Source: an uncultured Muribaculaceae bacterium (GTDB taxonomy: Bacteria; Bacillota_I; Bacilli_A; RF39; UBA660). From it: 64,000 nucleotides of DNA. The stretch spans positions 450 to 64,449 of the forward strand of contig CAYSZU010000001.1 in assembly GCA_964435635.1 (NCBI GenBank). Reading direction: 5' to 3'. Shown piece by piece: positions 35,388 through 62,591 of the stretch. The notes beneath the pieces are model-generated. The model had not been told where the DNA came from. It saw only the letters and a program-made list of their open reading frames with translations, and made no database searches. Numbering within the stretch: the first letter of the stretch is position 1; each line of letters starts with the position of its first letter. Position numbers and translations under genes: made by a program.

Positions 35388-36272
35388 TTATCCCTCGATA
35401 TTTATTCCCAATATTTCGATAATTCTCTCTAAGTCTTTTTCTGAGTCAAATGGAATTTCAATTTTATGAGAACCAATTTTAACCTTAGTCCCTATTTTTT
35501 CCCGCATAACATTTTCAAAAATATTATAGCGAATATTCGGACTTTTAACTCGATTAATTTTATTAGTCTTACTAAATTCATTATCTCCTGCTAGTTTTTC
35601 AACATCACGAACGCTCAAGTTCTCAGCAATTATTCGATTAGCTAAAGCTTCAGCTTGAAACTCATCAGCCATTTTACTTAAAACTCTGGCATGTCCCATT
35701 GAAATTTTATTTTCAGCAATCATTTTTTTAGTATTATTCGATAGTCTTAAAAGACCAATCATGTTAGTAATATGACTTCGACTTTTACCAAACTTTTTCG
35801 CTAATTCATCTTGGGTCATTCCGGTACTAGCAATAATTGCTTCAAAGGCTCCTGCCTCCTCGATCGGATTAAGGTTTTCTCTTTGAATGTTTTCGACTAG
35901 TGCTATTTCCATCATTTCCTGATCATCAAAATTTCTAATAATAGCCGGAATCTTTTCTAAACCTGCTAACTTTGAAGCTTTTACTCTTCTTTCCCCGGCA
36001 ACTAATTCATAACCCTTTATACTTTGTTTAACTATAATTGGTTGAACAACCCCGTGTTCTTTAATTGAATCAGCCAGTTCAATTAAGGCTTTTTCATCAA
36101 AGTTCTTTCTTGGTTGATAAGGGTTGCTGCGAATCTCAGCTAGATTAATTTCGATTATATCGCCTGGTTTTGTTTTAGTAACAATTTCCTTTTCAAAAGA
36201 ATCGAAATCAATCCTTTCGTTTGAAAATAATTGCTCTAATCCTTTACCAAGTGCTTTTCTTTTAGTTTCCAT
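35388..36272 (-). CDS. parB: chromosome partitioning protein ParB (Spo0J)
   Basis: GERRVKASKLAGL ParB box and HTH; it is adjacent to parA. Confidence 0.9.
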   Translation of the reverse strand: METKRKALGKGLEQLFSNERIDFDSFEKEIVTKTKPGDIIEINLAEIRSNPYQPRKNFDEKALIELADSIKEHGVVQPIIVKQSIKGYELVAGERRVKASKLAGLEKIPAIIRNFDDQEMMEIALVENIQRENLNPIEEAGAFEAIIASTGMTQDELAKKFGKSRSHITNMIGLLRLSNNTKKMIAENKISMGHARVLSKMADEFQAEALANRIIAENLSVRDVEKLAGDNEFSKTNKINRVKSPNIRYNIFENVMREKIGTKVKIGSHKIEIPFDSEKDLERIIEILGINIEG

Positions 36273-37047
36273 TACGACTTATCACTTCCTTTGCCAAATT
36301 TTGGTAGGCTAATGTGGCACGACTTTCTGGATCGTAGTCACTAATTGGTTTGCCATGACTAGGCGCCTCAACCAGTCTTACCAGCCTAGGAATTATAGTG
36401 TTAAAAACTTTGTTTTTAAAATATTTTCGCACCTCTTCAATAACTTCTAAACCAATATTTGTTCTGCCGTCAAGCATAGTTAATAGAACTCCTTCAATTC
36501 TTAAATTCGTGTTCATGTTTGACTGAACCATAATAATTGAATTTAATAATTGGGTGATCCCTTCAAGGGCAAAAAATTCGCATTGAACAGGAATAATCAC
36601 CGAGTCACTAGCAACTAAAGCATTCATCGTTGTAATTCCAAGTGACGGTTGGCAATCAATAATAATATAATCATAATTATCTTTAATAAGAGTTAGCGAC
36701 TTACTTAGTTGTTCGTTTTGTCGAAAGCTATTGTCTTCTAACATTTTTTTAACAAATTCTACATCGACCCCAGCTAGATTTATAGTTGAGGGAATAATTG
36801 AAAGGTTTTTAAATTTTGTTTTTATGATTGTTTTTTCTATCTCAACTACTTCTGTCATAACATCATAAATATCATATTGAAAATCATTAGAACTTAAGCC
36901 TAACCCAGTTGTTGCATTACCTTGAGGATCAAAGTCGATTAAAAGGGTTTTTTTTCCTTCTTTGCCCAAAGCAGAAGCTAAATTTATACTAGACGTTGTT
37001 TTACCAACGCCTCCTTTTTGGTTAACAAGTGAAATTATTTTTGCCAT
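36262..37047 (-). CDS. parA: chromosome partitioning ATPase ParA (Soj)
   Basis: KGGVGKTT deviant Walker A. The ATG at 37047 follows AGGTGG. Confidence 0.9.
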   Translation of the reverse strand: MAKIISLVNQKGGVGKTTSSINLASALGKEGKKTLLIDFDPQGNATTGLGLSSNDFQYDIYDVMTEVVEIEKTIIKTKFKNLSIIPSTINLAGVDVEFVKKMLEDNSFRQNEQLSKSLTLIKDNYDYIIIDCQPSLGITTMNALVASDSVIIPVQCEFFALEGITQLLNSIIMVQSNMNTNLRIEGVLLTMLDGRTNIGLEVIEEVRKYFKNKVFNTIIPRLVRLVEAPSHGKPISDYDPESRATLAYQNLAKEVISRNGN

Positions 37048-37117
37048 ATATACCACCTTTTCAAAGTATTCTTCACTTAAATTATTTTATCACATATAAT
37101 ATTAAATGTCATATCAT

Positions 37118-40496: not shown

Positions 40497-41360
40497 TTAG
40501 CAATGATGTTTTTTCTTTCCGGCAAATAGTTTATTATTTTTATTTACCGCCGCATGAGAATCAGTGATTGTAATAAAAGCATTTTTATCTATCGCTAAAA
40601 CTCCGCCTTTAACTTTATAATAATTTTCGGTCTTTACAACACACATAATAATTTGCTTTATCCCACGAGAATCTTTTCTTTCAGCATCGATTAATGTGAT
40701 ATCACAGCGGCAAACCTCCATCAAATACTTTTTAACCTTTACTGGGGCGATTGTATTAATATAAAATATTTTATTATCTCCGATTCCATCAAGCTTTTGA
40801 TTGGCAAATAATAAAATAATGATAAAAATAATGATTGAGTAAGCCATATTTTCTAAACCAAAAACTAAACCGCCGCTAATGACAATTAAGCCATCAACTG
40901 CAAGCGATGATAACCCAAAAGATATATTGAACATTTTACTAAATATTTTATTAATAACATCAGTTCCACCAGAAGTAAAACCGTTATTAAAAATTAAGCG
41001 ATAACCAATGCTAATAACTATCCCAGCAAAAATAGCTTGAGCTAGAAGATCAACATCACCTACTTTAAGATAAGGTGTTAGAAAACTTGTTAGATATACC
41101 ATGATTGGCATTAATATTGCTCCATAAATAGAATTAATGAAATCCTGGCGGTTAATAATAAAATAACTAATTGTCATAATAAATATATTGGCTAGAGCAA
41201 TATAAACCTCAACTCTAATATTCCAAGAATAATTAAAAAGCAGAGCTATACCAGTTACATCTTCAACTACAAAATTGTTTGGCGCTAAAAAGGCATTAAA
41301 GGCTAATGCGATTATTGAGATTCCACATAATAAAGAGGCAATTCTTTTTAATCTTGTCAT
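40497..41360 (-). CDS. YitT-family membrane protein (second paralog)
   Basis: The C-terminal IIMCVVKTENYYKVKGGVLAIDKNAFITI module matches that of the 23838-24746 protein. Confidence 0.7.
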   Translation of the reverse strand: MTRLKRIASLLCGISIIALAFNAFLAPNNFVVEDVTGIALLFNYSWNIRVEVYIALANIFIMTISYFIINRQDFINSIYGAILMPIMVYLTSFLTPYLKVGDVDLLAQAIFAGIVISIGYRLIFNNGFTSGGTDVINKIFSKMFNISFGLSSLAVDGLIVISGGLVFGLENMAYSIIIFIIILLFANQKLDGIGDNKIFYINTIAPVKVKKYLMEVCRCDITLIDAERKDSRGIKQIIMCVVKTENYYKVKGGVLAIDKNAFITITDSHAAVNKNNKLFAGKKKHHC

Positions 41361-42461
41361 TATCCCGCTCTTTTCTCTTCTTTTAATACCGATTCAATTA
41401 TTTCCGTTATTTCCCCATTCAATACTTTATCAACCTGAGCTGTTTCATAATTAGCACGATAGTCTTTTACTAATGTATATGGTTCTAAAACATAACTTCT
41501 AATTTGGCTCCCAAAATTAATACTTTCATTATTATCCTTAAACTTCGATAATTCTTTTTCGTTGCTTTCTAAGTGTAGCTTATATAATTTACTTTTCAAA
41601 ATTTTAAGGGCTTGCTCTTTATTTTTGATTTGGCTCCGCTCATTTTGACAAGTTACAACGATTTTTGATGGTAAGTGGGTAATTCGAACAGCTGAATCAG
41701 TTGTATTTACGTGTTGGCCACCAGCCCCACTACTTCGATAAACATCGATTTTTAAATCTTTTTCATTTATTTCAATATTTATTAATTGTTCAAACTTTGG
41801 GGTAATATTTATTGAAGCAAAAGATGTGTGACGCCTGGAATTAGAATCAAAAGGCGAAATTCTTACTAGGCGATGAACACCAGCTTCGCATTTTAAGTAA
41901 CCATATGCATAAAGCCCGCTAATTAAAAGCATTATATTTTTAATTCCGGCTTCCTCCCCTTTTTGTTCATCGATAATTTCTATTTTAAAGCCATTTTTTT
42001 CGCAAAACTTTAAATACATTCTATAAAGCATTAAAGCCCAATCACAAGACTCTGTTCCACCGGCCCCAGGATGAATTTCTAAGTAGCAACTAAGTTCATC
42101 AAATTCGCCATTTAGTAAAGTTTTTGTTTCAAGTCCCTTTATTTGGTTTTCAATAACATTAAGCATTTGACCAATCTCATCTTCAATTTCTGTTTCGCTA
42201 TTATCAATATTCAAATACTCATCAACTTCATTAAGGTTTATTTCAATAACTTTTACCTCGTCAACAAGCTTTTTTAGACTAGCAATCTTTATATTAGTTT
42301 GGCTAGCATTTTCAATATCATCCCAAAAACTTTCCTGTTTAGTTAATTCTTCTAATTGGTCAATCTCTTTTTCTTTGCTAGCGACGTCAAAGCGTCCTCC
42401 GAAGTTCGCTTATTTTATAAAGACACTTTTCTTTTTGTTGTTTTAATTCATATTTTTCCAT
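41360..42461 (-). CDS. prfB: peptide chain release factor 2, expressed by a programmed +1 ribosomal frameshift
   Basis: Frame 0 runs from the ATG at 42461 (GAGGTAATAAT RBS) and encodes MEKYELKQQKEKCLYKISELRRTL, ending ...CGG AGG ACG CTT TGA C. The in-frame TGA is at 42387-42389. The +1 frame continues FDVASKEKEIDQLEEL... into the 284-aa track ORF, which has GGQ and SPF motifs. Mature product is join(42461..42390, 42388..41360), ~366 aa. Confidence 0.9.
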
Positions 42462-52434: not shown

Positions 52435-52878
52435 CTAACCTGGGTTATTTATTTCGTCATCATCAGCGATAATAACAAAGTCCTTTAGATCATCATCTGG
52501 TTCATCTTCATTTTCATCAGCAGCATAGAATATTTTTTCTTCCTCTTCTTCTTCAAAATCATCCGAATCATCGGCTAGAGCATCGGCCATTAAATCATCA
52601 TCGTCATCATCTTCTAAAATAATTTTAGCTGAATGTTTAGACTTTAAATCCCAAAAGCCGTTTTTTAACATAATAAATCTTTGATCAGTAGATATTACTT
52701 CGAAAAAGTCAGCAATTTTATTAATAAAATCGTCCTCTGATAATTCTAGCATTGTACATACCTTTTTAAATAAATCGTTGATTTTCATTTTCTTTTTGCC
52801 TTCGACTAATATTTGATAGGCAATATCATCATATGACATCGCTTCAAGTTCCACCTTTGACAAATTTTTTAATTTCAT
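52435..52878 (-). CDS. rpoE: RNA polymerase delta subunit
   Basis: An N-terminal HARE-HTH domain plus a ~70-aa poly-Asp/Glu tail, typical of Firmicute/Mollicute RpoE. Confidence 0.85.
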   Translation of the reverse strand: MKLKNLSKVELEAMSYDDIAYQILVEGKKKMKINDLFKKVCTMLELSEDDFINKIADFFEVISTDQRFIMLKNGFWDLKSKHSAKIILEDDDDDDLMADALADDSDDFEEEEEEKIFYAADENEDEPDDDLKDFVIIADDDEINNPG

Positions 52879-53031: not shown

Positions 53032-53394
53032 CTAGTTGCCTTCTTTCTTAATAATAATCTGACTCTCTACTTCATCAGTTTCAAGACAATATTTTATTTC
53101 AATTAATTCCTCACCTATTTCAAAAATTAAATATTTAAACTTTAGTGGCAACTCATATTGCTCTTTAATTAATTTGTAATTCATAGACTTTATATCATTT
53201 TTCTCTTCAATTGTAAATGAAAATTCATCATTATATCGACAAAAATATTTTCTTTGAGGATTACAATCGACTAAATAATTTATATTTTCAATAACAAATG
53301 TGATAACGAAGTGGTCTTTTTCATAAATAACTTGCGGTTCGCTAATAACTTGATCACCATTTTTAATTAATGAAAAAGATAATTCTTTGGTCAT
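53032..53394 (-). CDS. hypothetical protein (120 aa)
   Basis: ORF with no recognisable motif, flanked by 100-150-nt intergenic regions. Confidence 0.45.
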   Translation of the reverse strand: MTKELSFSLIKNGDQVISEPQVIYEKDHFVITFVIENINYLVDCNPQRKYFCRYNDEFSFTIEEKNDIKSMNYKLIKEQYELPLKFKYLIFEIGEELIEIKYCLETDEVESQIIIKKEGN

Positions 53395-53497: not shown

Positions 53498-54841
53498 TTA
53501 TTTATTAATGTTTATTGTTATTTGATACGATGTTGCTAGATCAGCTTCGTCTATCGTTATCTTCGTGCCTTTTTCTAAAAGCGATGTAACAACACTACGA
53601 ACTTCTTTGATTGCCGAACCTAAATTTGCTTGTTGAACTTCTATAATGTTTGGTTTTAAACTTTCATCCAATTTAGCAATTTCAGTTACCGGGTCAACCG
53701 GCGCTATTATTGGTCTTTCCAATTCTGGAGGAATATCGGCTGTTGCTGGAGTGAAAAACCTGTTTTCAGAGCTTACCTTAGGGCCAGTATCCATTCGATT
53801 GAAAAAGCCACTTCCCGCTGCTTCTGGAGTTGAAACCGGTTCAATAAAGCCGGTGGCGTCATTAATAGTTTCATTACCTATTTTAAATGGAGCATCAAAC
53901 ACTTCAACTGGTGGTGGAGTTAACTCTACGGTTTCAGCTTGGGTTGCTTGTTCACTAAAATCCGCGTTGAAATCAAAAAATTTATTGTTTAAAGGCTTCT
54001 CTTCCTTAACTTCCCCAGTATTTAAAGGATTAACCGCCACAAATGGTTGATCAAATGGTTGCGGAACCGTTGGTAATGATTCACTATGTTCAGTCATTAA
54101 GCTTTCTGGCATCATCATGCTTTCAGCACTCGGCCTAATCTCAGGAGCATTTAAATCCATAGCTGTATTCCGAATATTATTTATATTTATTTGGCCATTA
54201 GTGGTTGGCGCCTCTTCAATTTCTTCAGCAACATATCCACCATTAACTTTTTTTAATTCCATATCAAGTTGTCTGACAGTCATTCTTTCATTAATTACTC
54301 GATCAAGCCATTCTATTTGTTCATCTTTATTAGAAAGAGTTAGTAAAGCTCGAGCGTGACGCTCAGATATTTTTCCTTCTAATAATGATTGCTGAACTTT
54401 ATCATCAAGGTTTAATAAACGTAATTTATTAGCGACTGATGATTGAGATAATCCCATTCTTTTAGCTAGCTGATCTTGATTTAAATATCCTTTATCAAGT
54501 AAGTTTTTATATGATCTAGCTTCTTCAATTGGGGTTAAATCTTTCCGTTGAACGTTTTCAACTAAAGCTATTTCAGCACTCGTATTATCATCAATATTAG
54601 AAATAACAGCAGGGACAGTTGTTAATCCAGCCATTGTTGCAGCTTTAAATCTTCGCTCCCCAGCGATTATCTCGAACTTGTCACCAAGCTTTCTTAAAAC
54701 TAGTGGTTGAATTATTCCATGCTCTTTGATTGAATCAGAAAGCTCTTTCAACCCTTGTTCATCAAATGATAAACGCGGTTGAAATCGATTTGGAATTATA
54801 TCCTCAAGATGGACTTGAAGAATCTCAGATTCTATTTTCAT
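53498..54841 (-). CDS. noc: Noc-like ParB-family protein with a long disordered insert (447 aa)
   Basis: IIPNRFQPR...GERRFKAA ParB box; HTH ...KISERHARAL. The C-terminal domain IKEVRSVVTSLLEKGTKITIDEADLATSYQITININK resembles the Noc/ParB C-terminal domain. It is adjacent to rsmG, as Noc is in Bacilli and Clostridia. Confidence 0.8.
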   Translation of the reverse strand: MKIESEILQVHLEDIIPNRFQPRLSFDEQGLKELSDSIKEHGIIQPLVLRKLGDKFEIIAGERRFKAATMAGLTTVPAVISNIDDNTSAEIALVENVQRKDLTPIEEARSYKNLLDKGYLNQDQLAKRMGLSQSSVANKLRLLNLDDKVQQSLLEGKISERHARALLTLSNKDEQIEWLDRVINERMTVRQLDMELKKVNGGYVAEEIEEAPTTNGQININNIRNTAMDLNAPEIRPSAESMMMPESLMTEHSESLPTVPQPFDQPFVAVNPLNTGEVKEEKPLNNKFFDFNADFSEQATQAETVELTPPPVEVFDAPFKIGNETINDATGFIEPVSTPEAAGSGFFNRMDTGPKVSSENRFFTPATADIPPELERPIIAPVDPVTEIAKLDESLKPNIIEVQQANLGSAIKEVRSVVTSLLEKGTKITIDEADLATSYQITININK

Positions 54842-54895: not shown

Positions 54896-55615
54896 TTATT
54901 TTTTCAATGAATTTTTGATTATTTTATCGTATCTTCTTGGATATATCTTATTTGTTACTTTCTTTTTATGCACTTTAATCAACATTCGCTGGCTTTCTTC
55001 AAAAGGTAAGATATATTCTATTTTTTCTTCGACTAGACCGCCAAGTTCTTTTATAGCAAACTTGCCTTGTTCAAAATCTTCCTCATTTTTGCCTTTCATT
55101 GCGACAAAATAACCGCCTACTTTAACAAAAGGAATTGATAACTCTGCCAAAATGTTTAACGGAGCAACTGCTCGAGCGGTAACAAAGTCAAAGGCTTCTC
55201 GCTTCTCAGAACAATAATCCTCGGCTCTTTTGTTAACTACTTCTAAATCAGATAATTGAAGTAAAGAACTAACTTCACGAAGAAAACTGGCTTTTTTGCC
55301 ATTTGGTTCTAAGAGAGTGACTTTTAATTCTGGAAATATTATTTTGATTACTATTCCTGGAAAACCTGCCCCACTACCTATATCAAGAAGACTGGTAATT
55401 TGATCAGAATTTAAAGCCTTGATCAAGCAAAGTGAATCATAAAAATGTTTTAAAAAAACTTGGTTATAATCTTTTATGCTAGTTAAGTTAGTAATTTGAT
55501 TGACGGCAATTAAGTGTTTCGCATACTTATCAAATTTTAGATATTGCTCTTGATTTAAATCAATCCCAAGGTTTTTAACGGCTGATATAAACTCTTCTTT
55601 ATTCATTCTTTCCAT
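54896..55615 (-). CDS. rsmG: 16S rRNA m7G527 methyltransferase RsmG (GidB)
   Basis: SAM motif DIGSGAGFPG. Confidence 0.92.
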   Translation of the reverse strand: MERMNKEEFISAVKNLGIDLNQEQYLKFDKYAKHLIAVNQITNLTSIKDYNQVFLKHFYDSLCLIKALNSDQITSLLDIGSGAGFPGIVIKIIFPELKVTLLEPNGKKASFLREVSSLLQLSDLEVVNKRAEDYCSEKREAFDFVTARAVAPLNILAELSIPFVKVGGYFVAMKGKNEEDFEQGKFAIKELGGLVEEKIEYILPFEESQRMLIKVHKKKVTNKIYPRRYDKIIKNSLKK

Positions 55616-58831: not shown

Positions 58832-58869
58832 AAATTGCCTCCTTCGCCCGTATTATAGCATAAATTTTT

Positions 58870-58900
58870 TTTAATAAAATTAAAAAGCCTTTCGGCTTTT
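58870..58900 (-). terminator. terminator after jag/khpB
   Basis: AAAAGCC-TTTC-GGCTTTT hairpin overlapping the jag stop codon, followed on the minus strand by TAATTTTATT. Confidence 0.55.
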
Positions 58901-61229: not shown

Positions 61230-62591
61230 GTGAGGAATTTGAACACTGAAAATTTATGGGAAAATTTTCTTAAAATCATTAGCGAAACAACTAATCCGGT
61301 TTCTTTTAGCGCGTGGTTTTCAAATTTAAAACTAATAAATGTTACTAACAACTCAATTACGATTCAAGTTCCGATGATTATTCATAAGAAGATGCTTGGC
61401 GAAAACTACTATTCTTTAATAGAAAATACTTTTTTTTCACTAACCGGAATTAATTATAATATTGATTTCATATTAGAAAATGAACCGGGATTAGAGAAAA
61501 ACCAAGCTCCTAATGAACAAATTATTAGAAATGATGAATTAGACTTTGATAGTAATTTAATAACACAATATTCTTTTGATAATTTTATTGTTGGTGATAC
61601 TAATCGCTTTGCTAAAACTGCCGCCTTAGCGGTAGCGGAAAAACCAGGTAAAATATATAATCCGCTTTTTATATATGGAAAAAGCGGCTTAGGTAAAACC
61701 CATTTAATGCATGCAATTGGTAATTATATTAATAATAATACCGATTTAAAGGTTTTATATACTACTAGTGATGATTTTAGAAATGATTTTATTGGTATTA
61801 CTAATGCTAATAACGGTGATAATGCTTTTGAATATTCTAGTAACTTTAAAAATAAATATCGTTGTGTTGATGTTTTAATTATCGATGATATTCAATATTT
61901 AGTAGGAGCCGAAAAAACCCAACAAGAATTTTTTCATACTTTTAATGAATTACAAAGAAATAATAAACAAATCATTATAAGTAGTGATCGTTCTCCGGAT
62001 GATTTAAAATTATTAGAAGAAAGATTGCGCTCACGTTTTGCCTGGGGATTAGCAGTTGATATTTATCCTCCTGATTTTGAACTAAGGTGTCGAATTATTA
62101 AAAATAAAATAGATCACACCAGTATAGCTAATCGAATAGAGAATGATGCAATTGAATATATTGCTAATAATTGTGAAAATGATGTAAGAGGAATAGAAGG
62201 AGCAATAAACAGGCTTGTTGCCTATACTGCAATGATTGTTCCTGAAGTTATTAATTTAGAATTTGTTAATGAAGCATTAAAGGACTATGTTAATAAAACA
62301 ATGTTTATAACTAACGATATTATTAATATTCAAAAAGTTGTGGCAGAATATTATAAATTAACTGTGGAAATACTAAAAAGTAAGAAGAGAAGTAATAATA
62401 TTTCTTATCCTCGCCAAATAGCTATGTATTTATCAAGAATGTTGACCGACGAATCGTTTCCTCGCATTGGTTTAGAGTTTGGCGGTAGAGATCATTCGAC
62501 AGTTATTCACGCTTGTGATAAAATAGAAGCAGATCTTAAAGAAAATAATAAATTAAAAGAGATTATTAATGAAATTAAAAATAAATTGTAG
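61230..62591 (+). CDS. dnaA: chromosomal replication initiator DnaA
   Basis: AAA+ GKSGLGKTHL and a C-terminal DnaA-box-binding HTH. The start is either the GTG at 61230 or the TTG at 61239. Confidence 0.93.
   Translation: MRNLNTENLWENFLKIISETTNPVSFSAWFSNLKLINVTNNSITIQVPMIIHKKMLGENYYSLIENTFFSLTGINYNIDFILENEPGLEKNQAPNEQIIRNDELDFDSNLITQYSFDNFIVGDTNRFAKTAALAVAEKPGKIYNPLFIYGKSGLGKTHLMHAIGNYINNNTDLKVLYTTSDDFRNDFIGITNANNGDNAFEYSSNFKNKYRCVDVLIIDDIQYLVGAEKTQQEFFHTFNELQRNNKQIIISSDRSPDDLKLLEERLRSRFAWGLAVDIYPPDFELRCRIIKNKIDHTSIANRIENDAIEYIANNCENDVRGIEGAINRLVAYTAMIVPEVINLEFVNEALKDYVNKTMFITNDIINIQKVVAEYYKLTVEILKSKKRSNNISYPRQIAMYLSRMLTDESFPRIGLEFGGRDHSTVIHACDKIEADLKENNKLKEIINEIKNKL

Follow-up and report, generated by a model that had tools for sequence, protein, structure and literature searches.

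A Noc-lineage ParB-family protein of uncultured gut Bacilli without the membrane-targeting helix and with a long acidic linker carrying conserved motifs

How might a protein of the Noc lineage deliver its output when the helix that constitutes this output is missing? In the current Noc model (Adams 2015; Jalal 2021), output rests on a single element, an N-terminal amphipathic helix gated by CTP, which draws NBS-marked DNA to the membrane. The helix (aa 1-10) is required for function in B. subtilis (PMC4331003, PMC8429893); Adams 2015 (PMC4331003) showed that it is weak and depends on clustering, and that an unrelated helix can take its place. A few hundred natural Noc-lineage proteins keep the clamp, the NBS-reading residues, and the dimerisation domain, yet have no such helix. 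One of them is encoded in the window, the whole stretch of 64,000 nucleotides analysed here, and a literature search found no account of a long-linker Noc or of a Noc without the membrane-targeting sequence (MTS). The host clade comprises abundant, uncultured, low-GC, genome-reduced gut Bacilli. The gene and its parts are as follows.

53498..54841, minus strand: noc-lineage open reading frame, ParB family, long-linker type without membrane-targeting sequence (447 aa, ATG start, complete)
54548..54826, minus strand: N-terminal CTP-binding (ParB/Srx) domain, aa 6-98 (Pfam PF02195 ParB_N, E 1.1e-31)
54245..54544, minus strand: HTH DNA-binding domain, aa 100-199 (Pfam PF17762 HTH_ParB, aligned to Geobacillus Noc)
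53630..54241, minus strand: acidic intrinsically disordered linker, aa 201-404 (from composition, charge, and pLDDT)
53501..53629, minus strand: C-terminal domain of the Noc dimerisation type, aa 405-447, α-β-β (from AlphaFold, hhalign, and the Noc HMM)

The N-terminus is fixed by the DNA around the start codon. An in-frame TAG lies 11 codons 5' of the noc ATG, no start codon can be read between the two, and an AAAGGGG ribosome-binding site is located 8 nt 5' of the start, so an N-terminal extension of the protein is impossible. The protein begins with MKIESEILQV, has no LG[KR]GL ParA-stimulating peptide, and starts 5 residues ahead of the first position covered in alignments with the Noc HMM and the Noc crystal constructs. 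A sequence-only reading of this DNA had proposed that only 5 residues precede the conserved core and that the membrane-targeting amphipathic helix is absent. Both proposals are borne out by the in-frame stop, and the helix is likewise absent from 79 homologues. It is also missing from remote members of the family.

The folded parts of the protein point to Noc. PNRFQPR and GERRFKAA (aa 61-68) lie within the CTP-binding domain, and ENVQRKDL (aa 95-102) straddles its C-terminal edge into the HTH domain; the residues of all three are invariant in 58 relatives. The ParB/Srx domain with its GERRxR and ENxQR boxes is present, and the top Foldseek matches of this domain are the Noc structures 7NFU and 7OL9. 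The HTH domain, which includes KISERHARAL at aa 157-166, superposes on the Noc DBD-NBS complex 6Y93 with a TM-score of 0.88 (target-normalised) and an rmsd of 1.9 Å. At the C-terminus, AlphaFold predicts a helix at 407-423 and strands at 427-434 and 439-446 with a pLDDT of about 90. Alignment of this 43-aa domain with the canonical Noc C-terminal domain by hhalign gave 97.4% and E 1.6e-11 over 49 columns, and the domain alone matches Noc HMM positions 214-255 as its sole NCBIfam match. A structure search returned no solved Noc C-terminal domain for fold comparison. Scanned against Pfam with hits allowed to E 10, the linker and C-terminal domain gave no match, which is uninformative because the true ParB C-terminal domain encoded in the window has no Pfam match either. 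The ParB/Noc N-terminal domain and HTH earlier recognised in the first ~200 aa from GERRFKAA and KISERHARAL are thus recovered by Pfam at 6-98 and 100-199, and the likeness of the last ~40 aa to a Noc/ParB C-terminal domain holds over ~43 aa in hhalign. The CTP-binding, HTH, and Noc-type dimerisation domains are all intact.

We then asked to which ParB lineage the protein belongs. The Noc HMM TIGR04285 gives it 274 bits compared with 231 bits for the ParB of the window. The curated cut-off of 315 bits is reached neither by the native protein nor after in silico deletion of the linker (285.6 bits), a deletion with which the HMM aligns end to end (1-255/255). In a neighbour-joining tree with a small ParB sample of two (the window ParB and B. 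subtilis Spo0J), the long-linker family and canonical Noc were separated from the ParBs in 98.7% of 300 bootstraps, and the family grouped with its own ParB in 0% of them. The best PDB matches in both sequence and fold are Noc structures. By tree, profile, and structural match the protein is a Noc-lineage member of the ParB family, in agreement with its initial recognition as a Noc-like ParB paralog. Chromosomal ParB/Spo0J (TIGR00180, including the window ParB) shares the fold and the CTP-clamp motifs, and the first 200 aa are about 41% identical. In contrast to ParB, the Noc-like protein carries Q/K/R instead of R/x/G at the specificity positions and has neither an LGKGL peptide nor an adjacent ParA, and the terminal helix assigned by eye to the ParB C-terminal sequence has no counterpart in its C-terminal domain.

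The residues that read DNA are of the NBS type. Q133, K139, and R161 correspond to Noc Q158, K164, and R186, and are invariant in the 58 aligned relatives. N144, conserved in at least 90% of them, stands in for the second Lys (K169 in B. subtilis numbering). The roles of the Noc specificity residues have been described, and for NBS preference it suffices to have Gln and Arg with a Lys at one of the two positions (PMC7383237). We therefore count the NBS-type set as present, with N144 replacing K169. The parS-type residues (Arg at position 173 and Gly at position 201) are replaced by Gln and Arg. The recognition-helix segment is near-identical across 79 genome loci, NBS-bearing and NBS-less alike.

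Between the HTH and the C-terminal domain lies the linker, in which six motifs are conserved to varying degrees.

54149..54208, minus strand: motif M1, aa 212-231 (P-x-x-x-x-x-INI-NNIRNTAMDLN), a short helix (from conservation and AlphaFold)
54080..54121, minus strand: motif M2, aa 241-254 (SMMMPESLMTEHSE), with P245 at least 90% conserved
53957..53989, minus strand: motif M3, aa 285-295 (NNKFFDFNADF), with F289 invariant and F288 at least 90% conserved
53888..53908, minus strand: motif M4, aa 312-318 (VEVFDAP), a conserved block in alignments A1 and A3
53747..53770, minus strand: motif M5, aa 358-365 (SENRFFTP), a second N-[KR]-F-F copy (from conservation)
53663..53698, minus strand: motif M6, aa 382-393 (VDPVTEIAKLDE), a short helix just ahead of the C-terminal domain, with P384 invariant

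Residues 201-395 contain 12.3% E, 11.8% P, and 6.7% F and carry a net charge of -23, and the AlphaFold pLDDT is below 50 for most of aa 205-404. This confirms the disorder and the richness in Pro, Glu, and Phe described in the sequence-only reading, which had put the insert at ~190 aa; its length is about 200 aa. The strong acidity of the linker was not part of that description. Family linkers measure 62-387 aa with net charges of -10 to -82, compared with 8-19 aa and +1 to +7 in canonical Noc. The charge is thus inverted, and the length is roughly ten-fold greater.

The chief linker motif is N-[KR]-F-F, which in many relatives lies inside a longer PNKFFNFLEDExxNM and occurs in 0 to 5 copies per protein across the clade. 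M3 of the window protein is a degenerate copy of the clade-wide PNKFFNFLEDEaANM; the motif is found in most of the 79 genome loci, with a variant NDNKFVNF in remote members. In M5 (subclade consensus LNPNNKFFTP), N360 is invariant, and F362 and F363 are at least 90% conserved in 58 sequences and invariant in the 16-sequence linker alignment (A3). The FF motif is missing altogether from about 10 of the 79 relatives, and one locus, L076, has five [DNS][SG]LF[AGS]xP repeats instead of NKFF. AlphaFold models of the window protein and of P0026, a homologue with a better M3, show no helix at M3 or M5 (pLDDT about 45-55). M1 (family consensus PLVxxxPNIExIKxNAxDIN) has a predicted helix at 220-226 with a pLDDT of about 73; its P212, I223, A227, and D229 are each at least 90% conserved among 58 relatives, and it is retained in the remote members P0390 and P0368. 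M2 follows the subclade consensus SMMxPExxMTEYS, M4 follows LE[IV]FDxP with D316 invariant in A3, and M6 follows [IV]DPMxxV with a predicted helix at 384-393. Four Phe motifs had been singled out by eye, of which FFDFNADF, FDAPFKIG, and RFFTPA fall on conserved motifs and GFFNRMD is not conserved. We set aside an FFAT-like reading of E[IV]FDAP as a chance resemblance of low information content, since the known FFAT receptor is eukaryotic.

The same design, with no N-terminal helix, an acidic linker of 62-387 aa, noc adjoining rsmG, and parAB elsewhere, recurs across uncultured gut Bacilli, in at least 79 species-level genomes and in 387 protein clusters. In 79 of the 80 related species-level loci, noc encodes a full-length long-linker protein (303-629 aa) that has no N-terminal helix; the end of the 80th locus falls inside the noc gene. 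More than 120 homologue clusters of 419-541 aa are full-length at 100% coverage, and every full-length match to a profile of the linker and C-terminal domain begins at about residue 200. The closest relatives share 66% and 62% identity and are 453 and 439 aa long. A protein of this length is therefore present clade-wide, which the sequence-only reading had named as the finding that would make it unremarkable locally, and the architecture is a family trait rather than a local oddity; for the window itself, the feature is ordinary within its clade. The remodelling that had been proposed as lineage-specific is real, with altered origin segregation as a putative part of it, and it characterises a whole large clade of uncultured gut Bacilli rather than this genome.

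This distribution also bears on a possible artefact of annotation or assembly, in which the long ORF would be a neighbouring ORF fused by a frameshift, or else a pseudogene in decay. Apart from the unusual length and the low-complexity middle, nothing speaks for it. The frame is uninterrupted over 53498..54841 (-), the last 43 aa are the C-terminal domain of Noc itself, the architecture is repeated in the clusters and species genomes described above, and a 99%-identical 447-aa protein is present in independent assemblies. Neither tandem DNA repeats nor Rfam families were found in the noc region. Fusion with a neighbour, raised at the outset as a possible explanation of the insert, was accordingly rejected together with decay and misassembly, and we regard the chance of an artefact as negligible.

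The neighbourhood of noc is partly ancestral and partly rearranged.

54896..55615, minus strand: rsmG (gidB), immediately upstream of noc (Pfam GidB, E 5e-50)
53032..53394, minus strand: 120-aa ORF, immediately downstream of noc (no Pfam or NCBIfam match)
36262-37056, minus strand: parA (NCBIfam and Pfam matches)
35388-36272, minus strand: parB (NCBIfam and Pfam matches)

rsmG is the ancestral neighbour of noc, and the adjacency is preserved in nearly all related loci that reach that far; the ancestral ORI cluster has been described (PMC8136486). parA-parB lie 16.4 kb from noc, with ftsH, tilS, prfB, secA, hpf, murA, prmC, prfA, and rpoE between them (prmC and prfA were assigned from ORF translations and synteny matches). 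The sequence-only reading was accurate on these points, having left noc beside rsmG and placed ftsH, prfB, secA, murA, prfA, and rpoE between it and parA-parB. The window ParB has an N-terminal LGKGL peptide (KALGKGLEQLF), an adjacent ParA, and the parS-type residues R and G. Among the 80 related loci, parAB follows noc directly only in L076. Genes that recur downstream of noc are a class A PBP (58 of 79 loci), an ORF of ~115 aa (40), and argS (30). Homologues of the 120-aa ORF are near noc in 40 of the 79 loci and directly 3' of it in the closest relatives. No downstream partner gene is universal among the 79 loci, and the window has the small ORF only.

Binding sites were sought in the window and in the origin-proximal DNA of the 80 related loci. 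The exact 16-bp NBS of B. subtilis, TATTTCCCGGGAAATA, occurs in 17 copies in 12 related loci, where about 3e-4 are expected from base composition. Together with 4 one-mismatch copies, it is found in 14 of the 80 loci (939 kb). Its most frequent position concerns the following feature.

58832..58898, minus strand: jag-mnmE spacer, promoter of the mnmE-mnmG-rsmG-noc string (a terminator, then ATGCTATAAT; no NBS in the window)

An NBS covers the -35 position of this promoter in 13 of the 57 loci that include it (12 exact and 1 one-mismatch). In these related species it sits behind the jag terminator, ends 5-9 nt 5' of an extended -10 element TGnTATAAT, and is the only perfect palindrome of at least 14 bp with at least 4 G/C upstream of mnmE. 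Some relatives have a further NBS between mnmE and mnmG or directly 5' of noc. Since the site lies over the -35 element of the operon that contains noc, the protein probably represses its own operon in the NBS-bearing subset of species. This reading does not apply to the window species, whose promoter carries no NBS. Within the 64-kb window, there is no site within 2 mismatches of the 14-bp NBS core, and the two 3-mismatch hits are below chance expectation; likewise, a search for parS, the B. subtilis NBS (up to 3 mismatches), and de novo palindromes returned nothing above chance, so that the parS/NBS search suggested from the sequence gave no site here. The NBS is also absent from the loci of the two closest relatives, and parS at up to 2 mismatches was found neither in the window nor in the 80 related loci.

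The comparison with canonical Noc (B. subtilis, Geobacillus, Staphylococcus; TIGR04285; 7NFU, 7NG0, 7OL9, 6Y93) can now be drawn. Both have the same CTP-binding domain and HTH, the same NBS-type specificity residues, the same α-β-β dimerisation domain, and a noc gene directly 3' of rsmG near oriC, and the 16-bp NBS within the clade is identical. The long-linker family lacks two canonical helices, the membrane-targeting amphipathic α1 and α2, which in canonical Noc holds α1 in an autoinhibited state. It thus resembles a natural N-terminally truncated Noc, comparable with the N-delta-26 crystal construct. The canonical linker is Lys/Arg/Pro-rich and 8-19 aa long, whereas that of the family is acidic and disordered and bears FF motifs. 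Unlike canonical Noc, the window protein has Asn for the second permissive Lys, scores below the curated cut-off, and is encoded away from soj-spo0J, and some family species carry an NBS on the promoter of noc's own operon.

Where, then, would the output reside? On balance, we favour a Noc-lineage CTP clamp whose effector function has shifted into a multivalent disordered linker. The protein would load at the NBS, close as a CTP-bound clamp, and spread in the manner of Noc and ParB. In B. subtilis Noc, the output step is CTP-gated release of the N-terminal helix onto the membrane; here it would sit in the linker. Clamps clustered on DNA would display many weak aromatic motifs on long flexible tethers, and these would bind their target by avidity. 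As their target we prefer either the cytoplasmic membrane or a division protein close to the membrane, which would keep a nucleoid-occlusion-like role. Direct contact of the linker with the membrane comes close to an even chance without reaching it, and a protein partner as the target is possible, at a probability clearly below even.

The case for the membrane comes from the amphipathic character of M3. Its consensus IPNKFFNFLED has a μH of 0.71 and a mean hydrophobicity of 0.54, compared with 0.50 and 0.59 for the N-terminus of B. subtilis Noc; M3 of the window protein is weaker (0.49 and 0.33). A PSSM built from canonical Noc N-termini found its best match on a linker FF motif, mostly M3, in 48 of 79 proteins. 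These matches are not significant (mean 5.0 bits versus 3.3 bits for shuffled controls; 7.6% of the proteins above the 95th percentile of these controls). The idea of NKFF as a relocated Noc membrane-targeting sequence was kept as a lead only. The motif has a charge of -1 to -2 and the surrounding linker one of -23, and this acidity disfavours binding to an anionic membrane. Moreover, FF cannot be the sole effector element, because about 10 of the 79 relatives are devoid of it. Short amphipathic Phe-rich elements are known from the membrane-targeting segment A, which lies in the disordered C-terminal half of RNase E of E. coli, and from the N-terminal helices of SepF and MinD. The linker resembles them as a Phe-rich element in or next to a long acidic disordered region, with weak, avidity-dependent membrane contact as its putative effect; the likeness is one of analogy and no homology is claimed. 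In addition, [KR]-x-FF followed by acidic residues in the linker resembles Noc MKHSFSRFFGLGEKE. Unlike the elements of RNase E, SepF, and MinD, the linker motif has a negative net charge and no AlphaFold helix.

The same features can be read without any lipid contact. The motifs might be docking peptides for a specific protein partner, making the protein SlmA-like or an adaptor hub that would draw this partner to NBS-marked DNA or hold it off. The conserved polar residues in N-N-[KR]-F-F and E-[IV]-F-D-x-P are typical for peptide-protein recognition, and acidic surroundings fit a basic groove better than an anionic membrane. The Pro directly after FF in M5 (NKFFTP) makes this copy unlikely to be helical, which fits docking as well. 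As for the gene neighbourhood, the class A PBP gene is convergent to noc in 58 of the 79 relatives, but the window has no PBP neighbour, and no gene within +/-6 kb of noc co-varies with the linker motif. The β-clamp-binding consensus is QL[SD]LF. The L076 repeats end like its [SD]-L-F, but the motifs miss the full consensus, with no Q-L at positions 1-2. We consider this docking reading rather unlikely, though worth keeping in mind. FtsZ, FtsA, SepF, a class A PBP, the DnaN sliding clamp, and a ParA/MinD-type ATPase were noted as candidate partners.

Still less probable, in our judgement, is a protein that chiefly represses its own transcription or organises the origin region locally, KorB-like and with no membrane or division function left. 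The linker would then be a largely neutral, fast-evolving spacer that widens the clamp lumen or masks non-specific DNA binding by basic surfaces. The NBS over the -35 element of the mnmE-mnmG-rsmG-noc promoter in 13 species, the loss of the membrane-recruitment helix, the wide variation of the linker in length (62-387 aa) and composition, and the replacement of a basic linker that probably aids non-specific DNA contact by an acidic one are all consistent with such a role. However, the promoter NBS is confined to 13 of 57 loci and does not extend to the window, whereas the conservation of the protein and its recognition helix has no such limit; the survey behind these counts covers origin-proximal DNA. 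The conservation of M1, M3, M4, and M6 also speaks against a purely neutral spacer. KorB of plasmid RK2 (8QA8/8QA9) is a ParB-family CTP clamp and long-range transcriptional repressor that works with KorA. Its loading site lies at promoters, an arrangement that the promoter-sited NBS of the 13 relatives resembles. KorB differs in that it shares only 25% identity with the window protein and uses another DNA site, and the window species has no promoter site.

Returning to the preferred reading of an effector function within the linker, a bolder extension, which we hold to be doubtful, is that nucleoid occlusion was rebuilt throughout an order-level clade of gut Bacilli: Noc would have lost the helix and gained multivalent N-K-F-F 'stickers' on a long acidic tether, while the NBS moved onto the promoter of the protein's own origin-proximal operon. 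Through the stickers, clamps loaded at the NBS would be tied to the membrane or to a protein of the divisome or replisome; alternatively, the stickers would drive condensate formation. If true, this would be a second, mechanistically distinct route by which DNA held by a ParB-family clamp is coupled to the cell envelope or the division machinery. If nucleoid occlusion persists in the clade, the output module of a ParB-family clamp would be movable and rebuildable, and the motifs would hint at a new membrane or protein interface. If it has been lost, the family would show use of the Noc clamp without membrane binding, for example as a promoter-loaded autorepressor. In the source databases, homologues of the protein go by the name of 'hypothetical protein' or by a generic ParB name only.

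The Noc-like gene and the gene of the window's own ParB are as follows:

53498-54841, minus strand: noc-like gene, uninterrupted 447-aa open reading frame (ORF) with an ATG start
35388-36272: the window's own parB, product scoring 231 bits with TIGR04285

Reading upstream of the noc-like gene, we found a ribosome-binding site (AAAGGGG) 8 nt ahead of the start and an in-frame TAG 11 codons 5' of it, with no start codon between. Since rsmG also ends only 54 nt away, a longer N-terminus is impossible, and the suggested absence of an N-terminal amphipathic helix is thereby confirmed. Pfam assigns residues 6-98 to ParB_N and 100-199 to HTH_ParB. With TIGR04285, the NCBIfam Noc model, the protein scores 274 bits, above the window's ParB but below the curated cut-off of 315. 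Among PDB sequences, Geobacillus Noc (7NG0 and 7NFU; E about 2e-56) matches best, with Spo0J ranking behind, and Noc structures are likewise the top fold matches for the AlphaFold model, whose DNA-binding domain superimposes on 6Y93, the Noc-NBS complex, with a target-normalised TM-score of 0.88 and an rmsd of 1.9 A.

Four positions switch ParB specificity from parS to the Noc-binding site (NBS), namely Q158, K164, K169, and R186 of B. subtilis Noc, and Gln, Arg, and one Lys suffice for the switch (PMC7383237, Jalal et al. 2020). The window protein carries Q133, K139, N144, and R161 at these positions. Q133, K139, and R161 never vary among 58 relatives, in at least 90% of which N144 is also conserved; the recognition-helix segment is almost constant among all 79 genome homologues. 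The window's true ParB, which adjoins ParA and has the N-terminal peptide KALGKGLEQLF, carries Arg and Gly at the two discriminating positions. In a neighbour-joining tree (190 columns, 300 bootstraps), the family and canonical Noc were separated from the window ParB and B. subtilis Spo0J, a small sample of ParB, in 98.7% of bootstraps, and the family never joined its own ParB. The description of the protein as a Noc-like ParB paralog is thus upheld by model score, structural matches, and tree.

Glu, Pro, and Phe make up 12.3%, 11.8%, and 6.7% of residues 201-395, where the net charge is -23. AlphaFold, given a 58-sequence alignment, modelled residues 1-200 and 407-447 confidently, whereas most of 205-404 had pLDDT <50, apart from short helices at 220-226, 239-242, and 384-393; a second model, of the related protein P0026, behaved in the same way. 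Composition and pLDDT both bear out the disordered P/E/F-rich insert that the sequence-only reading had described. The final 43 residues fold into a helix followed by two strands. Built from 58 relatives, a profile of this region matched one made from the last 50 residues of canonical Noc (120 proteins; probability 97.4%, E 1.6e-11), in agreement with the proposed dimerisation domain, and the C-terminal 52 residues alone matched only the Noc HMM (positions 214-255). When residues 216-400 were removed in silico, the Noc HMM aligned end to end (1-255/255; 285.6 bits). This alignment and the C-terminal profile match show the insert to be an expanded form of the linker that Noc itself has between its DNA-binding domain and its C-terminus. 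A frameshift-fused neighbouring ORF, raised earlier as an alternative, is ruled out by the end-to-end alignment and the Noc-type C-terminus. Neither tandem DNA repeats nor Rfam elements were found in the noc-like region. Across the family the linker spans 62-387 aa with a net charge of -10 to -82, whereas that of canonical Noc is short (8-19 aa), Lys/Arg/Pro-rich, and charged +1 to +7.

The window protein shares with Noc its descent, fold, DNA-specificity residues, C-terminal domain, and gene position. However, because it lacks the N-terminal membrane helix, one of the functional features that define Noc, and misses the curated HMM cut-off, it is a Noc-lineage ParB-family clamp of distinct architecture, with a long linker and no membrane-targeting sequence, and not a bona fide Noc.

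A database search with the window protein returned >120 clusters of 419-541 aa (100% query coverage, ~50% identity), of which the closest two are 66% and 62% identical and 453 and 439 aa long, respectively. Scanning one genome per species yielded 80 related loci, 79 with a full-length homologue; these 79 derive from MAGs of uncultured gut Bacilli or 'Tenericutes', including Coprobacillus sp. CAG:605, Candidatus Coprovivens, Candidatus Ventrenecus, Clostridium sp. CAG:609, and Firmicutes bacterium CAG:460. The proteins are 303-629 aa long (median 412) and always start a few residues ahead of the conserved core. Searched against 1.84 billion representative proteins, a joint profile of linker and C-terminal domain matched no more than 387 clusters at a cut-off of E <=1e-3; at E <=1e-10 there were 93. 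In full-length proteins the match starts at about residue 200, and none of those inspected, remote members included, carries an N-terminal extension. Source databases name the proteins only 'hypothetical' or generic ParB, and a literature search for long-linker Noc variants without the N-terminal helix found nothing. The gene order is jag, mnmE, mnmG, rsmG, noc, a variable 2-5 kb, rpoE, prfA, prmC, and among the related loci parA-parB directly follow noc in L076 only. What the sequence-only reading observed is confirmed, and its interpretation is partly supported: the remodelling is real, but it belongs to the clade; for the window's genome this architecture is ordinary.

A search for binding sites, also proposed from the sequence, found neither parS (TGTTNCACGTGAAACA) nor NBS within 2 mismatches of consensus in the origin-proximal 64 kb of the window, the interior of parB included; matches at 3 mismatches (three for parS) were at chance level, and there were no recurring palindromes. 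Sites inside parB are frequent in Firmicutes. The window ParB, whose parA-parB pair lies at 35388-37056, has parS-type residues despite this absence. We surveyed the 80 loci, window included (939 kb). Exact copies of the 16-bp NBS of B. subtilis, TATTTCCCGGGAAATA, number 17, spread over 12/80 loci, with 4 further one-base variants, against ~3e-4 copies expected from base composition (0.34^10 x 0.16^6 x 9.4e5), and parS at <=2 mismatches occurs nowhere. Given these counts, the clade appears to retain the canonical Noc-NBS pair. Placement is non-random, mostly in the jag-mnmE spacer downstream of the jag terminator:

L001, L003, L006, L007, L008, L021, L026: jag-mnmE NBS (e.g. L003:1923-1938)
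L028, L059, L064, L066, L073, L074: jag-mnmE NBS (e.g. L073:1960-1975)
L072:1860-1875: NBS within the mnmE coding region

A few further sites are found between mnmE and mnmG, with one more just ahead of noc. In the jag-mnmE spacer the NBS precedes an extended -10 (TGnTATAAT) by 5-9 nt, i.e. it occupies the -35 position, and its flanks often extend the palindrome to at least 20 bp; at this mnmE-mnmG-rsmG-noc promoter the site is often lengthened to ATTATTTCCCGGGAAATAAT. It is the sole GC-containing perfect palindrome of at least 14 bp upstream of mnmE, exact in 12 of the 57 loci covering the region and with one mismatch in 1 more; in L003, L006, and L008 it is present twice, at a distance of 57-282 bp. 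In some of the species, this placement is suggestive of autoregulation or of a dedicated loading site near the origin. The window's mnmE promoter has the same -10 element (ATGCTATAAT) and no NBS, and none was found in the loci of its two closest relatives. Because recognition helices are near-identical between NBS-bearing and NBS-lacking species, the window protein probably reads the same NBS somewhere beyond the 64 kb.

Six conserved linker motifs emerged when relatives were aligned and all 79 genome homologues surveyed (window protein residues):

M1, 212-231: PLVxxxPNIExIKxNAxDIN
M2, 241-254: SMMxPExxMTEYS
M3, 285-295: N-N-K-F-F, F289 invariant
M4, 312-318: LE[IV]FDxP
M5, 358-365: LNPNN[KR]FFTP
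M6, 382-393: [IV]DPM

Three of the four phenylalanine motifs originally quoted coincide with M3, M4, and M5, whereas GFFNRMD is not conserved. Many of the more distant relatives have an M3 of 15 residues, PNKFFNFLEDEaANM, and remote members retain M1 and an NDNKFVNF variant of M3. Each protein has 0 to 5 FF motifs: in L075 (5992-7758) the linker is visibly repetitive, with NN[KE]FF occurring five times, and L076 (4115-5728) has five [DNS][SG]LF[AGS]xP copies in place of NKFF. The ending of the latter resembles the beta-clamp-binding consensus, QL[SD]LF.

Once loaded at NBS, B. subtilis Noc binds CTP and spreads as a closed sliding clamp; its N-terminal amphipathic helix, autoinhibited at first, is thought to be freed when CTP makes the N-domains engage, and such weak helices, clustered, draw DNA to the membrane (PMC4331003, PMC8429893). 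The first residue of the window protein nearly coincides with that of the N-delta-26 Noc crystal construct, and therefore both the amphipathic helix and alpha2 are missing. We infer that loading, closure, and spreading would be retained and the output function relocated to the linker, so that many clamps would display many weak aromatic motifs on long tethers.

The membrane may be the target of these motifs. The M3 consensus is amphipathic (hydrophobic moment 0.71, mean hydrophobicity 0.54; Noc N-terminus, 0.50 and 0.59) and resembles SRFFGLGEKE of Noc in pattern; a PSSM of the Noc N-terminus matched best on a linker FF motif, mostly M3, in 48/79 proteins, and the native helix can be replaced by an unrelated one in B. 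subtilis (PMC4331003). However, the PSSM scores were no higher than those of shuffled controls, M3 is acidic and lies in acidic surroundings, AlphaFold models it without a helix, M3 of the window protein is degenerate, and some relatives wholly lack the FF motif. A protein partner is almost as likely a target, in line with the conserved polar residues of the motifs, the acidic stretches around them, and the Pro that follows FF in M5. As a third possibility, the protein may act mainly as an autorepressor or origin-region organiser, with the linker a largely neutral spacer. The promoter-placed NBS would fit such a role, but most species lack it there and the linker motifs are conserved. As a family these proteins are undescribed, and they allow a direct test of how a ParB-family clamp can work without Noc's membrane helix.

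Other features of the region are listed below:

53032-53394, minus strand: 120-aa ORF, no Pfam or NCBIfam match, homologues in 40 related loci
52435-52878, minus strand: rpoE (RNA polymerase delta subunit), long Asp/Glu-rich C-terminal tail
41360-42214, minus strand: prfB, RF2 model match limited to positions 80-353
61230-62591, plus strand: dnaA
62724-63842, plus strand: dnaN

A convergent gene for a class A penicillin-binding protein (~650 aa) lies immediately downstream of noc in 58/79 loci, e.g. at L027:7233-9281 (minus strand); in the window it is absent from this position. An ORF of ~115 aa, whose counterpart in the window is the 120-aa ORF, lies downstream in 40/79 loci and argS in 30/79. 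In the closest relatives the 120-aa ORF homologue directly follows noc (L081:11396-11758, L083:5167-5541) and is followed by argS, which is not so in the window. Past this variable region, rpoE is a conserved landmark in nearly all relatives. Beside dnaA/dnaN, at 60-64 kb, GC skew changes sign and GC falls to 23-27%, and every gene further left is on the minus strand, consistent with oriC at this end. prfB is well known for a programmed +1 frameshift, and the partial RF2 match is as expected if the N-terminal part lies in another frame.
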